The translations under genes and the position numbers were made by a program. From assembly GCA_903850275.1 (NCBI GenBank), contig CAINLH010000108.1, positions 1 to 26,492 on the forward strand: 26,492 nt of DNA. The letters run 5' to 3'. The notes beneath the pieces are model-generated. The model had not been told where the DNA came from and searched no databases. It was given only the letters and a program-made list of their open reading frames with translations. How positions within the stretch are numbered: the first letter of the stretch is position 1; every line of letters starts with the position of its first letter. Shown piece by piece: positions 22,036 through 26,492 of this stretch. The stretch comes from an uncultured Acidimicrobium sp. (GTDB lineage: Bacteria; Actinomycetota; Acidimicrobiia; Acidimicrobiales; Ilumatobacteraceae).

Positions 22036-23211
22036 ATGTCATCTTCGGTCGACATCCAACACCGCTTCCCCGGTTTGAACGGAGGTTGGGCTCGATTTGA
22101 CGGCCCAGCCGGAACCCAAATGGTCGATTCCGCACATCGTGCGATGACCGAATTTGCTAGCAGTGGCATCAACGCCAACACGGGTGGATACTTCGCCGCA
22201 GCAAACGAATGCGATGCGTTACTTGAACGCACACGCGGAGTGCTTGGCACTTTATTCGGCGCCAATCCAGAAGGCATTTGCTTGGGCGCAAATATGACCA
22301 CAATGACCATGGCCTTGACGCGTGCCATTGCGCGAACACTTAAGCCTGGAGACCGAGTCGTCGGCACCAAGCTCGATCACGACGCAAATGTTTCCCCTTG
22401 GAGAATTGCCTGCGAATTATCTGGTGCAGAACACGTACTTGCCCCATTCAACACCAGTACTTTCGAACTTGATACCGATGCAATGATTGCGCTCATCACG
22501 CCCAATACCAAGTGGGTTGCAATCACTGGCGCCTCAAACTTGTTGGGTACTGCACCAAATCTCAAACCAATCATCGATGCAGCGCACAACGTAGGCGCTC
22601 GTGTTTTTGTAGACGCAGTGCACCTCGCAGTGCACCGTCAAATTGATATTGGGCAGATTGGCTGCGACGTTCTCGCAACTTCTCCCTATAAGTGGTACGG
22701 CCCGCATGCGGGTGTTCGGTGTGTAGAGCCAGAATTACTCAATTCGCTGCCCGTTGCAAAAGTACGTCCTGCCAAAAACATCGGCCCGAGTCGTTTCGAG
22801 ACAGGAACACCCAACTTTGAAGGTATTGCAGCGGTGGAAGCCGCCGCGCGCTTTCTTATTGAAGAAGACATGAACAAAGTGGAGTCTTACGAAAACGGTA
22901 TTTTTCTGCCGTTACTCAATGGTTTGCAAAACATCGACGGAGTCAAAGTGTGGGGACGACCAACACTCGAAGGTCGTGTTCCAACAGTTTCGTTTACGAT
23001 TCAAGGCCACCGCCCCGATCACGTCGCCCAAGTGCTCGCACAGGCTCGAATTGCCGTGTGGTCTGGAAGTTCGTACGCCGTGGAAGCCGTCGATCAATTG
23101 GGCCTCACCGAATCGGGAGGCGTGGTTCGCGCGGGAGTCACCCGCTACGTATCTGCAAACGATGTTGATCGACTGCTTGAAGTAGTCACGTCGCTCGCGT
23201 CCAATCGTTAG
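22036..23211 (+). CDS. Class V PLP-dependent enzyme, cysteine desulfurase-like (TIGR01976-type by motif)
   Basis: FDGPAGTQ, LDHDANVSPW, VDAVH, SPYKWYGPH (PLP Lys), FETGT, RVPTVSF; no catalytic-loop Cys. Confidence 0.88.
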   Translation: MSSSVDIQHRFPGLNGGWARFDGPAGTQMVDSAHRAMTEFASSGINANTGGYFAAANECDALLERTRGVLGTLFGANPEGICLGANMTTMTMALTRAIARTLKPGDRVVGTKLDHDANVSPWRIACELSGAEHVLAPFNTSTFELDTDAMIALITPNTKWVAITGASNLLGTAPNLKPIIDAAHNVGARVFVDAVHLAVHRQIDIGQIGCDVLATSPYKWYGPHAGVRCVEPELLNSLPVAKVRPAKNIGPSRFETGTPNFEGIAAVEAAARFLIEEDMNKVESYENGIFLPLLNGLQNIDGVKVWGRPTLEGRVPTVSFTIQGHRPDHVAQVLAQARIAVWSGSSYAVEAVDQLGLTESGGVVRAGVTRYVSANDVDRLLEVVTSLASNR

Positions 23212-23221
23212 ATCATCTCGC

Positions 23222-23227
23222 TAGGCT
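23222..23227 (+). promoter_or_regulatory. Putative -10 box (TAGGCT) for tRNA-Pro
   Basis: TANNNT hexamer ending 9 nt before the mature tRNA 5' end. Confidence 0.35.
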
Positions 23228-23236
23228 GTTGCAGTC

Positions 23237-23309
23237 CGGGGAGTGGCGCAGTTGGTAGCGTGCCTGGTTTGGGACCAGGAGGCCGGGGGTTCAAGTCCCC
23301 CCTCCCCGA
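23237..23309 (+). tRNA. tRNA-Pro (anticodon TGG)
   Basis: Full cloverleaf: acceptor CGGGGAG/CTCCCCG, D-arm GCGC-AGTTGGTA-GCGT, anticodon stem CCTGG/CCAGG with TGG at 23270-23272, T-arm GGGGG-TTCAAGT-CCCCC; 3' CCA not encoded. Confidence 0.97.
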
Positions 23310-23337
23310 CAACTTTCTACCGAAATTTAAGGCTTTC

Positions 23338-23733
23338 ATGAACCACCCGATTGCGTCCGCAAAATATGTGTCGTTCGTGTCATACCGCCGTGATGGCACC
23401 CCTGTCGCAACCCCCGTCTGGATCGCCCCGTTGGGAAACGATTTTGGATTCACCATTGATAATGCGTCCGGCAAAGCCAAACGACTTGCGCACACCAATC
23501 GTGCAACCATTCAGCAATGCGACGTGAAGGGAAAAGTTGCAGAAGGAACGCCTGTGTATCTCTGCACCGCACGAGTTGTGCTTAATGGCGATGCCGAAAT
23601 TGTGCGCGACGCAGTCGCTAATAAATACGGGGTCACCTACAAAGTCTTTTCAATCTATTTATGGTTCACCGAACGTTTCGGAAAGAAGAAACACCAGCCA
23701 GAGACGGCAGTGATTGTCTCATTGGCTTCCTAG
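23338..23733 (+). CDS. PPOX-class probable F420-dependent oxidoreductase (Rv2061-like)
   Basis: SYRRDGTPVATPVW, SGKAKRL, QCDVKG, KYG motifs. Start at ATG 23338; the ORF-track extension runs through the tRNA. Confidence 0.85.
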   Translation: MNHPIASAKYVSFVSYRRDGTPVATPVWIAPLGNDFGFTIDNASGKAKRLAHTNRATIQQCDVKGKVAEGTPVYLCTARVVLNGDAEIVRDAVANKYGVTYKVFSIYLWFTERFGKKKHQPETAVIVSLAS

Positions 23734-23745
23734 CCTTCGCTGCGA

Positions 23746-25233
23746 TTAAGCCAACTCGCCCCGCGCAATGCTGTTACTCACGGCATTGACAAAATGACCC
23801 AGCGGCTGATCATGCTCGATCAGGGGAACGTACTTCCCTACAACATCAATCACTCTTTTTGCAGCCTTGCCCCGTTTAACTTCTGCGCGCAGACAAAGCA
23901 GTTGATGCGCAGTTACGGCTTCAATCGCCACTAGCTGTCGCAACCAGCCAATCTGTCGGCCCAGTTTTTCCACGACTAGCGGAAACTGCGATGCAACATC
24001 TTCAGCATTTTCAGAAATTGCAAAGAAGTCGAGACTTGCCGGATTGGCTTCAAATCGAACCCGCGTTGCCATTGCAACCGTCGACTTCATCAGAGCATTG
24101 AAGCCCACACTATGACCTTCGAGCGGCGCAAGGTATCGGGGAACCCCCTCAATGGTTCCGTTGGCCATTCTGATCGTTCGGTTGGCCGTCGCATTTGACC
24201 AGTGTGTAAGTGCAATAGAAAGCGCGTCTCCCGCTACGGACACCGCAAGCGATTGGAAATTGCTCGACGATCGGATTTGTCGTTTCTCTAGCAACACAAC
24301 TGGGTTGTCATTGCTCGAATTGCACTCTTGCTGCAGCAAATCCATAAACGATCGCGCATGGGTTTCCACCAAGGCCACCAGTGGAACAAGAGTTCGAAAC
24401 GAAAGCGCATGCTGGGCCTGATCAATCGCACCCTCTTCAAGCGTCCACGAACCGTGCAGCAAGTCCATGATCAATCGGCTTGCATCATCGCCTCCAGGGA
24501 CAGACTTTGTTGCCACAACTTCTGGCAGGAACGGCCCAGGGTTGACGCCATAGGCCTCGCACGATGCAACAGCAACCTGTTTCGCTGCAGCCAGGACAAC
24601 GCCCAACTCCGCGATTACTTCAACTGCGGCGGATTGCGTCACCGATCCGGAGTTCAGCAGGCCAAGCGCATCTTTTGCCGCAAGTTCGACCGGCTGCAAA
24701 TTGGCAGCACTCAGCGCGCTAAATGCAGAAACTCGTGTGCCCCGAAATGAAACGTCTCCAATGCCCAGCGCAGCAGCACACAATTGTGCACATTGGCCAA
24801 GATCGCTGGAGCCGACCGACCCAAGCGAAGCCACTACAGGCGTCAAACCCTTGTTGTACATTTCGACGAGTTGCTCGACAACATGCGGAGATACGGCCGA
24901 GTTGCCGTTGCACAAGTTCGCAATGCGAATACCTAGCGCACGTCGACTCACAGAATCTGGAAGGGGCTCCCCAATACCGATCATTCGCCCCTCGATCACC
25001 GATCTTTCAAAATCTGCAGTAGATCCGCGCTCCAGTTTCATTGACACGTTGGCCCCCAAACCAACATTCAGGCCGTAGACGGCAGAAGCTCCATCCAGAT
25101 GTTCATCAGCAATTTTTCGCGATTCGGCAATCCGCTTAACTGCGGCAGCAGTCAACTCAATCTGCGTGTCCAAGCTTCCTAACGCGATCAAATCGGCAAG
25201 CGCGAGGTGATTATCTCCAACAGTAATTTTCAT
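23746..25233 (-). CDS. Aromatic amino acid ammonia-lyase (HAL/PAL) family protein lacking the MIO tripeptide
   Basis: YGLNVGLG (HAL YGxxTGFG loop), GSVGSSDL (HAL GSVGASGDL), LGLLNS, LSFRT, NDNP, SSNF, NAEDVAS all map to HAL motifs. Not called hutH because the Ala-Ser-Gly is missing. Confidence 0.88.
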   Translation of the reverse strand: MKITVGDNHLALADLIALGSLDTQIELTAAAVKRIAESRKIADEHLDGASAVYGLNVGLGANVSMKLERGSTADFERSVIEGRMIGIGEPLPDSVSRRALGIRIANLCNGNSAVSPHVVEQLVEMYNKGLTPVVASLGSVGSSDLGQCAQLCAAALGIGDVSFRGTRVSAFSALSAANLQPVELAAKDALGLLNSGSVTQSAAVEVIAELGVVLAAAKQVAVASCEAYGVNPGPFLPEVVATKSVPGGDDASRLIMDLLHGSWTLEEGAIDQAQHALSFRTLVPLVALVETHARSFMDLLQQECNSSNDNPVVLLEKRQIRSSSNFQSLAVSVAGDALSIALTHWSNATANRTIRMANGTIEGVPRYLAPLEGHSVGFNALMKSTVAMATRVRFEANPASLDFFAISENAEDVASQFPLVVEKLGRQIGWLRQLVAIEAVTAHQLLCLRAEVKRGKAAKRVIDVVGKYVPLIEHDQPLGHFVNAVSNSIARGELA

Positions 25234-26246
25234 GAGTAACGCAATCTCTGGCCAACACCCATCTTCTTAGCCTTTGCAAGCATCGTATGACCAAGTGCAA
25301 TGTCGGAAAGCGACAGCCCACGATGCCAAAGCAGCGTTGTCTCATCGTCGGATTCTCGCCCGGTTTTTTTGCCGACAACAATCTCGCACAGCTCTCCGTG
25401 CAGACTTGTCTCGTTTAAAAGCCCAGCTTCAACGTGCGCGCGAAGCGAACCAAATTTGCCGCTCTTGCACTGCCCCCAATCATCGACCACCACTTTGTCC
25501 ATATTGGACAGCAAATCGATCTCTACGGCACTCATTGTCCCGTACGGCACAACAAATGCACCACGACCAATCCACTTCGTCTGCAGCATTGCCTCAGGCG
25601 CTGGCAATCGGGAAGCCTCTACAACGATGTCGGCTCCTTCAACGCAACTTTTCCAATCGGTTGTAACTCGCACAGGTTTGCCGAGGTCGTTGGAGAGTTT
25701 TTTTGCAAATGCCTCGCGACTTTCTGGACGAAGCGAATGCACCCGAATCTCATCAAAGTCAAATAAGTGATCAAGCAGTCGTACGTTCCAATACGCAGTC
25801 CCTCGAGCGCCAATGTGCCCCAAAACTTTGGAACCCTTTCGCGCAAGATGTTTGGCGCCTAGTGCAGTAATTGCGCCAGTGCGCATGTCCGTGAGGAACG
25901 ATGCGTCGATCACTGCTTTTGGCATTCCCGTGCGGCGATCCATCAAGTTGAGGAGGGCCAATTCGCTCGGGAGACCAGCCAAATAATTGTCGACAAAGTC
26001 CCCCACCACTTTGACGCCAGCCATGTCGATCGAACCACCAAGTGATCCGCGCAACACGTTGAAGTGGCCTTGCGAAACGCCTGGCTCCAGGTGGACTCGG
26101 GGCTCGATAACTGCCTCACCCATCCCCTGCAGCCGAAGGCCTTCTTCAACTGACTCAAGAATCTCGTCATTGCTTAATGAAAGTTTTTGCACGTCGATTC
26201 GGCTGAGATAGTCGATCCATGTTTCAGGAATTTCTTCGTTGCTCAT
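25230..26246 (-). CDS. Ornithine cyclodeaminase/mu-crystallin family protein
   Basis: GVKVV, TGMPKAVID, LTDMRTGA, Rossmann GHIGARGTA, ADIVV, VVDD, GRESDDE, GLSLSDIA. Start at ATG 26246, 1 nt after the upstream TGA. Confidence 0.9.
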   Translation of the reverse strand: MSNEEIPETWIDYLSRIDVQKLSLSNDEILESVEEGLRLQGMGEAVIEPRVHLEPGVSQGHFNVLRGSLGGSIDMAGVKVVGDFVDNYLAGLPSELALLNLMDRRTGMPKAVIDASFLTDMRTGAITALGAKHLARKGSKVLGHIGARGTAYWNVRLLDHLFDFDEIRVHSLRPESREAFAKKLSNDLGKPVRVTTDWKSCVEGADIVVEASRLPAPEAMLQTKWIGRGAFVVPYGTMSAVEIDLLSNMDKVVVDDWGQCKSGKFGSLRAHVEAGLLNETSLHGELCEIVVGKKTGRESDDETTLLWHRGLSLSDIALGHTMLAKAKKMGVGQRLRYS

Positions 26247-26247
26247 T

Positions 26248-26492
26248 TCAACCAATCCGATAGTCGTCTACGCGACTGGTGATTGCCTCTAAGACATCGG
26301 GCAATGGACGCACACCGATGCCCACCGTGTTCGGTACATCGATGTATCCATCTTTCAAAACGAATGGCTCGGTTACGTCTTGCACGAAGTAGCGATCGGA
26401 TGCGCTGGTGTCGCCTGGAAGTGTGAAGCCAGGCAGTGCAGCAAGCGCAAGGTTTGCAGCGCGGCCAATGCCGGTTTCCAACATTCCGCCAC
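26248..26492 (-). CDS. o-Succinylbenzoate synthase / N-acylamino acid racemase (enolase superfamily), 5' part outside window
   Basis: GGMLETGIGRAANLALAALPGFTLPGDTSASDRYF..D.TEPF...G...VP...G.GV closely resembles the C-terminus of Amycolatopsis-type OSBS/NAAAR (recalled, not searched). Confidence 0.85.
   Translation of the reverse strand, partial: GGMLETGIGRAANLALAALPGFTLPGDTSASDRYFVQDVTEPFVLKDGYIDVPNTVGIGVRPLPDVLEAITSRVDDYRIG

Follow-up and report, generated by a model that had tools for sequence, protein, structure and literature searches.

A putative composite operon joining a MIO-less lyase and an OCD-like oxidoreductase to a GNAT–NSAR/OSBS pair in an uncultured member of the Ilumatobacteraceae

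Do genes that are packed end to end on a contig serve a single pathway? The question is raised by the last 2.7 kb of a 26,492-nucleotide contig (G000:C108, GenBank CAINLH010000108.1; its whole length is called the window below) from an uncultured Acidimicrobium sp. of the family Ilumatobacteraceae, whose 1.5-Mb metagenome-assembled genome (MAG) consists of 367 contigs and is 88% complete. Three co-oriented minus-strand reading frames fill this region. They are the 3′ end of an enolase-superfamily gene of the N-succinylamino acid racemase/o-succinylbenzoate synthase (NSAR/OSBS) type, a gene of the ornithine cyclodeaminase (OCD)/mu-crystallin family, and a gene for a C-N lyase of the histidine/phenylalanine ammonia-lyase (HAL/PAL) family that is independent of the 4-methylideneimidazole-5-one (MIO) group. 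A preliminary description of the window assigned the three families correctly and combined them into one catabolic pathway. Our analysis favours a different answer. The locus is probably a four-gene operon, running from a Gcn5-related N-acetyltransferase (GNAT)-type acyltransferase through NSAR/OSBS and the OCD-like oxidoreductase to the MIO-less lyase, and made up of two independent two-gene modules.

The genes follow one another with almost no spacing. In GGTTGAAATGAGC, the enolase stop codon (TGA, 26250-26248) is separated by a single A (26247) from the likely start of the OCD gene (ATG, 26246-26244), whose open reading frame (ORF) spans 25230-26255. In CTCATGAAA, the OCD and lyase genes overlap by ATGA (25233-25230). 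Both junctions had been placed at these positions in the preliminary description, which also expected the operon to continue past the window. This is the case, and the break at the window end is an assembly break, since contig C108 ends there. Screening the genome for domains of the enolase superfamily revealed a gene interrupted at the end of contig C327, which supplies the missing 287 enolase codons and an upstream GNAT gene. Across the join the protein reads ...VPVWC-GGMLE..., the DNA ends overlap by 4 nt (GTGG), and the joined enolase has 367 residues, against 366 in uninterrupted orthologues. The join is borne out by synteny in five uninterrupted relatives (JGI/Logan contigs and a closed 2.02-Mb Ilumatobacteraceae genome). 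Their upstream part reads family-5 solute-binding protein (SBP5) ATP-binding cassette (ABC) transporter, helix-turn-helix (HTH) protein, phosphofructokinase, uracil phosphoribosyltransferase (opposite strand), a gene for 241-264 residues and an enolase gene for 366-368 residues. It continues downstream with the 338-residue OCD protein, the 495-residue lyase, a convergent PPOX-like gene, tRNA-Pro, a cysteine-desulfurase-like gene, tig, clpP and clpX. A follow-up of the upstream genes, as suggested earlier, thus yielded the acyltransferase and, farther upstream in relatives, the SBP5-ABC and HTH genes, but no hydrolase within the operon.

The correct frame of the enolase fragment is 26248-26490, which carries the PF13378 match; an 82-residue ORF at 26243-26491 lies in the wrong frame and has no Pfam or NCBIfam match. 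Contig C51 was rejected as the continuation, its galactonate-dehydratase-like gene ending without overlap. The assembly is split inside the NSAR/OSBS gene (window end 26492, L010 end 5417) despite the abutting ends. The split may stem from strain variation in the metagenome, as contigs from RNA libraries show many variant letters there. Such contigs, from four freshwater or river metatranscriptomes, run at low depth through all three genes of the window and across both of their junctions. Co-transcription would account for this pattern, which does not by itself prove it. A simple promoter and terminator scan inside the operon gave nothing above the shuffled expectation.

The distribution of the genes divides the locus in two. 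The comparison covered 80 loci from species-representative genomes, which hold 80 species-level relatives of the window lyase and form with it a clade set of 81. An OCD orthologue is adjacent to the lyase (same strand, within 400 bp) in 49 of the 80 loci and lies within 10 kb in 62, with about half of the remainder cut by contig ends. NSAR and GNAT genes, in contrast, stand beside the lyase in nine loci, all from Acidimicrobiia, and in none of the other 71, which are nearly all proteobacterial. The co-occurrence of three families that the single pathway calls for is therefore found in the nine Acidimicrobiia loci, whereas the other 71 lack NSAR. In an even sample of 151 Ilumatobacteraceae genomes, NSAR/OSBS is present in 133 (94 of the 103 high-quality ones), the OCD orthologue in five and the lyase in two, both from one genus; an even sample of the order gave three lyase carriers among 201 genomes. 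The NSAR/OSBS tally counts G286, a genome flagged as unpublished, and the conclusion does not depend on it. A GNAT gene accompanies NSAR/OSBS in every locus examined.

The same division is seen at close range. Within the genus, two species have both the lyase and the OCD gene, and three others, with genomes 97-98% complete, have neither. Moreover, a congener (G267), a member of another genus of the family (G211) and a BACL6-type relative (L098) have the same site minus the OCD-lyase segment of 2.5 kb. At sites without the pair (L118, L121, L098), the order is upp (leftward), GNAT and NSAR (rightward), PPOX and the cysteine-desulfurase-like gene (leftward), then tig and clpP (rightward), and the cassette of about 2.5 kb, where present, is bounded by the NSAR stop codon on one side and the convergent PPOX gene on the other. 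Because the modules separate in their distribution and congeners keep the site without OCD and lyase, the locus is, on comparative grounds, a composite: GNAT and NSAR/OSBS form its core pair, and OCD and lyase make up an accessory cassette that travels as one piece, between phyla as well. Of the pathway originally put forward, the coupling of lyase and OCD enzyme is retained, while the GNAT-NSAR/OSBS pair proves separable. A rank correlation of OCD with lyase identities over 54 loci (rho 0.19) is uninformative, as the proteobacterial values cluster.

The gap 3′ of NSAR is a variable spot in its own right. BACL6-type relatives carry a DUF1016/YhcG nuclease-like gene there (L098:9005-10036; L099:9005-9577), one copy being truncated. 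In another relative (L100:12462-14741), a phage-type integrase gene just downstream of the lyase replaces the PPOX, cysteine-desulfurase-like and tig genes.

The lyase aligns with 464 of the 466 positions of its PF00221 profile, and it fails the HutH equivalogs TIGR01225 (259.5 vs 539.15) and NF006871 (271.4 vs 524). Among solved structures it comes closest to the MIO-independent ergothionase of Treponema denticola (TdETL; 6s7j, E 5.3e-51), with HALs ranking behind. The loop that reads GSVGASGDL in HAL is GSVGSSDL in the window protein, one residue shorter. Across the 81 clade members the X-Ser-Gly triad is never in register, the eight-residue loop having AG, SS, TS, TG, AA or DS. Tyr53 (79 of 80 relatives), Arg280 (80 of 80), Phe326, Glu411-Asp412 and Lys383 are conserved. 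His83 of HAL is a substrate-binding residue, and this imidazole-binding His (His84 of TdETL) gives way to Arg in all 81 sequences. Lys383, which is invariant, occupies in a HMMER alignment the position of ergothionase Lys384, a residue essential for thiolate binding (2026 preprint, bioRxiv 10.64898/2026.04.22.720169). The Arg83/Lys383 pocket points to a substrate whose side chain is anionic or strongly polar rather than a plain imidazole. By their sequences, these proteins stand apart as a clade within the MIO-less HAL-fold lyases, and their OCD partner is fixed. Literature searches found nothing on this Arg clade or on an OCD-linked MIO-less lyase.

A role of the lyase as a replacement for HutH is not supported, since the carriers tested retain a normal HutH. 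The canonical enzyme is present in four genomes of the genus and in five proteobacterial carriers, and was not detected in the incomplete MAG itself. A closed congener possesses a third PF00221 gene (304 bits; G007:C1:1238814-1240070) besides HutH and the operon lyase.

One alternative is that the lyase is another trimethylammonia-lyase, acting on hercynine, ergothioneine, oxidised ergothioneine or a further amino-acid betaine, with the OCD enzyme as a conserved neighbour that has a separate job. Ergothionase is the best solved match and its Lys384 has an invariant equivalent; every characterised MIO-less relative is a trimethylammonia-lyase on histidine betaines and needs the trimethylammonium group (bioRxiv 10.64898/2026.04.22.720169). 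In addition, Methylobacterium and an Acetobacteraceae MAG have hut genes next to the OCD gene or the pair, and some loci have sulfur-type neighbours, namely a rhodanese, a Cys/Met pyridoxal-phosphate enzyme and luciferase-like monooxygenases. We nevertheless regard this explanation as unlikely. The loss of the imidazole-binding His throughout the clade speaks against it. The frequency of OCD adjacency across phyla (49-62 of 80 loci), together with the joint presence or absence of both genes within the genus, argues for a shared function, and the OCD subfamily occurs without the lyase too.

The nearest solved relatives of the OCD-like protein are Archaeoglobus fulgidus alanine dehydrogenase (AlaDH; 1omo, 1.9e-42), a pyrroline-2-carboxylate (Pyr2C) reductase (6t3e) and SbnB (4m54), whereas the true OCD 1u7h is matched at just 5e-06. 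All 13 NCBIfam matches are far under their cut-offs, the best being archaeal AlaDH (189.5 vs 409), and the protein belongs to no characterised equivalog (OCD, AlaDH, SbnB, EutC, LhpI or BhcD). It is closer to the dehydrogenase/imine-reductase branch than to the true cyclodeaminases. The subfamily is large (one search gave at least 8000 proteins at E <= 1e-40) and strongly conserved. Acidimicrobiia and Proteobacteria orthologues are 62-72% identical, and in a sample of 12 sequences across phyla the alignment columns average 80% identity. Its glycine-rich loop, the place of the canonical GxGxxG/A dinucleotide motif, reads GHIGARGTA, with one residue more (G-A-R-G) than the GFIGCGTQA of AlaDH, and this insertion is conserved in the subfamily.

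In Alpha- and Betaproteobacteria the OCD-lyase pair occurs without any NSAR, often near LysR regulators. Orthologous family-5 binding proteins (60-84% identical to the Bosea protein, L123:1342-2898) and Opp-type permeases and ATPases stand beside it in 13 loci. The closest named solved relative of this binding protein is AgaA (6hlx), which we take to be an opine-binding protein; the two best matches are generically named. Nine loci have a cytoplasmic PhnD-fold protein without signal peptide near the pair. This PhnD/PtxB-fold protein, which starts MLVANARMYAV, directly follows the OCD gene in many Proteobacteria, as in Bosea sp. 685 (L123:8017-8925) and in L122, L042, L027 and L036. In Methylobacterium an OCD-PhnD-like pair has hutD-hutU-hutG-hutI as its neighbours, and the nearest 7 kb contain no lyase gene; the OCD subfamily is wider than the lyase clade. 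Luciferase-like monooxygenases, rhodanese with a Cys/Met-type pyridoxal-phosphate (PLP) enzyme, and hut genes are neighbours in single lineages. In a Stellaceae contig (L016:8001-9897), the MIO-less lyase gene overlaps a DOPA-4,5-dioxygenase-family gene (PF08883), with the OCD gene 2 kb off on the other strand; an aromatic or catechol substrate may be used in this branch. The SBP5 ABC transporter upstream in the MAG was considered as a member of the module and rejected, being 25% identical to the proteobacterial binding protein and present where the pair is absent.

From these facts we infer that the OCD-lyase pair works in catabolism, as a small module that breaks down an N-substituted amino-acid derivative taken up from outside; the class of substrate and the order of steps are part of the same proposal. 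The side chain of the substrate would be held by Arg83, Lys383 and Glu411. The lyase would remove, independently of MIO, an already substituted α-nitrogen (quaternary or secondary) together with the β-proton, Tyr53 acting as base. For the OCD-like enzyme we envisage NAD(P)-dependent imine/amine chemistry, directed at the partner that bears the nitrogen or at a precursor. More specifically, and only tentatively, the cassette could represent a novel pathway of two steps that acts on an N-substituted amino acid other than histidine betaine or ergothioneine. This might be a secondary amine of the opine type or a betaine whose side chain is anionic, and the Arg83 clade would then be the first MIO-less HAL-fold lyases to work on something other than imidazole substrates. 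In Ilumatobacteraceae the route might be fed by GNAT and NSAR.

The other half of the locus belongs to the core equipment of the family. The GNAT gene overlaps the enolase start by ATGA and encodes 241-264 residues. By sequence it is barely recognisable, with a weak PF00583 contact in just seven of 12 members, one of which passes the cut-off; sequence and profile searches against solved structures returned only noise. Its AlphaFold2 model (predicted local distance difference test score, pLDDT, 84.9) matches RimI, Naa50 and the phosphinothricin (PAT)/ArsN N-acetyltransferases with a Foldseek probability of 1.00 and target-normalised TM scores of 0.62-0.82. On this predicted structure the protein is assigned to the GNAT fold.

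The NSAR/OSBS orthologue aligns end to end with the Amycolatopsis NSAR/OSBS 1sja (E 4.1e-129). The joined window enolase (P0364) contains VRIKLKIEPG, QVDANAAYT, LIEQPL, VCLDESI and NIKPGRVGG, with the KxK pair, the Asp/Glu/Asp metal ligands, K263 and R266 all present. R266 is the NSAR specificity residue (PMC12006748). The enolase also exceeds the cut-off of the MenC equivalog TIGR01928 (311.5 bits vs 200.65). MenD is over its cut-off in the MAG and in the closed congener, MenB in the closed congener, and the futalosine markers MqnA and MqnD gave no match in either genome. In the closed congener the operon enolase is the sole gene over the TIGR01928 cut-off and the best, although sub-threshold, match to the actinobacterial OSBS model; the remaining three enolase-superfamily genes resemble acid-sugar dehydratases. 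It is not part of a men operon there, with MenD at 154 kb, MenB at 441 kb and NSAR/OSBS at 1,879 kb. The preliminary description would have given way had the enolase belonged to a men cluster and made only o-succinylbenzoate. The gene lies outside such a cluster, and at the same time it is the sole plausible o-succinylbenzoate synthase of a genome that needs one.

Most likely, then, the enolase supplies the o-succinylbenzoate synthase activity of the cell for menaquinone. Given its GNAT partner and the intact K263/R266 racemase determinants, it is predicted that it probably also racemises N-acyl (N-succinyl) amino acids. The genome needs OSBS, the gene lies apart from any men operon, and a GNAT gene lies alongside as in D-amino-acid conversion operons; by the criteria of the Glasner laboratory, whose framework for bifunctional NSAR/OSBS enzymes we follow (PMC12006748), the enzyme belongs to the 'possibly bifunctional' NSAR/OSBS class.

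Several points weigh against the division into two modules and against the double role of the enolase. The four-gene order holds in nine Acidimicrobiia species while lyase identity falls to 53%, and with ATGA, TGA-A-ATG and ATGA coupling the successive genes, a functional link of all four is possible in this lineage. RNA-library contigs can include DNA, and they are no proof of a single transcript. No desuccinylase or other hydrolase gene is present in the operon, which leaves the NSAR half of the bifunctionality unproven. The OSBS families are highly divergent, and a MenC elsewhere could have escaped recognition. As the MAG is 88% complete, the arguments from MenB and from uniqueness lean on the congener, which is 89-96% identical at the locus. 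Finally, if the lyase were to release trimethylamine from a betaine, the OCD step would have no obvious place.

The first of these points brings back the single pathway, in which one modified amino acid would be acylated by the GNAT protein, racemised by NSAR, oxidised or cyclised by the OCD enzyme and cleaved by the lyase. The overlapped, co-oriented genes and the RNA-library contigs across both junctions favour it, as does the persistence of the four-gene order in the nine Acidimicrobiia loci and, with a lyase of just 39% identity, in the metagenomic locus L017; streamlined genomes, moreover, tend to retain functionally linked genes together. However, OCD and lyase do without NSAR and GNAT in 71 loci, GNAT and NSAR stand alone at the same site in congeners, and the prevalences of NSAR/OSBS and lyase are far apart in the family. 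On general chemical grounds, the amide nitrogen of an N-acyl amino acid would also be a poor leaving group in a HAL-type elimination. A pathway common to all four genes is thus quite unlikely, and two independent pairs remain the preferred reading of the locus. The reverse use of the lyase, adding an amine to an enoate with the OCD enzyme as an opine-type dehydrogenase to make an aminopolycarboxylate or opine-like metallophore re-imported by the SBP5 ABC system, would accommodate the 13 proteobacterial transporter loci, the AgaA likeness and the SbnB-type enzymes of the OCD family, but it is very improbable, given that no exporter, nicotianamine-synthase-like or further biosynthetic gene is found, that the LysR and importer contexts look catabolic, and that the Ilumatobacteraceae transporter is neither orthologous nor confined to carriers of the pair.

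The coordinates of the locus and of the genes bordering it are collected below.

Coordinates of the operon genes and of the flanking features; window positions unless a contig is named
Feature	Position	Strand	Profile evidence
MIO-less HAL/PAL-family C-N lyase, 495 aa (P0001)	23746..25233	-	PF00221 3.4e-97
OCD/mu-crystallin-family NAD(P)-type oxidoreductase, 338 aa	25230..26246	-	PF02423 1.1e-50
NSAR/OSBS enolase-superfamily gene, 3′ end (80 codons + stop)	26248..26492	-	PF13378 4.3e-07
NSAR/OSBS gene, remainder, contig C327	L010:4555-5415		
Cysteine-desulfurase-like protein	22036-23211	+	TIGR01976, hypothetical equivalog (VC1184 type), passed: 357 vs 352 bits
tRNA-Pro(TGG)	23237-23310	+	
Small F420-type PPOX-class protein	~23350-23733	+	TIGR03666, matched: 94 vs 85 bits

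The PPOX-class and cysteine-desulfurase-like genes converge on the lyase gene and are present with or without the OCD-lyase pair. The tRNA-Pro gene between them is kept at the same spot in the relatives L019, L098 and L118, and RNA-library depth peaks there (63x in X1, 23200-23349). Since the long 'PPOX' ORF (23260-23733) begins inside the tRNA gene, the true PPOX start must lie later.

MIO-less enzymes of the HAL family have been recognised only recently, and the Arg clade adds at least 81 species-level members from three bacterial classes. The invariant His-to-Arg exchange in the specificity pocket and the very conserved OCD partner point to an unrecognised substrate and to a small catabolic module of soil and freshwater bacteria, for which cultured carriers exist, among them Bosea sp. 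685, Labrys okinawensis DSM 18385 and Tianweitania. The family-wide GNAT-NSAR/OSBS pair, in organisms that need MenC, offers a natural system in which to ask whether one enzyme serves two pathways. The locus also calls for caution, because tight operon packing in streamlined genomes is by itself no proof of a shared pathway.

How do the two modules compare with known systems? D-amino-acid conversion operons are said, after work by Sakai in 2006, to combine a GNAT N-succinyltransferase, NSAR and an L-desuccinylase, and Odokonyero reportedly dealt in 2018 with the 'bifunctional' NSAR/OSBS enzymes of such operons. The enolase described here has all the catalytic residues and the R266 of these enzymes and of the Amycolatopsis NSAR/OSBS. 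It also resembles the bifunctional systems in that its genome requires OSBS and that the gene has a GNAT neighbour but no place in a men operon. Unlike the D-amino-acid conversion operons, the present one has no L-desuccinylase, and the family of its GNAT is extended at the C terminus and lacks any close relative of solved structure.

The OCD-like protein shares with AlaDH, Pyr2C reductase, SbnB and BhcD the PF02423 fold and the Lys and Arg of the GVK and DMRTGA motifs, presumably a carboxylate-binding pair. It differs from them in falling under every curated cut-off, in its altered glycine-rich loop and in forming a very conserved subfamily of its own. The lyase has the fold of Pseudomonas putida HutH (1b8f/1gkm), together with Tyr53 and the equivalents of Arg283, Phe329 and Glu414, but it is unable to form MIO. 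Its likeness to the ergothionases and histidine-betaine trimethylammonia-lyases (TdETL, 6s7j; Shewanella SO_3057, SO_3299 and Swoo_3913) goes further. They have in common the PF00221 fold, the absent Ala-Ser-Gly triad and a loop one residue short of that of HAL, and the catalytic Tyr, the carboxylate-binding Arg and the equivalents of Glu412 and Lys384 are kept in the Arg clade. In contrast to that type, however, every Arg-clade lyase has Arg in place of the imidazole-contacting His, the enzyme is cytoplasmic, and its partner is an OCD-family protein instead of a urocanase-type hydratase or a flavocytochrome reductase.

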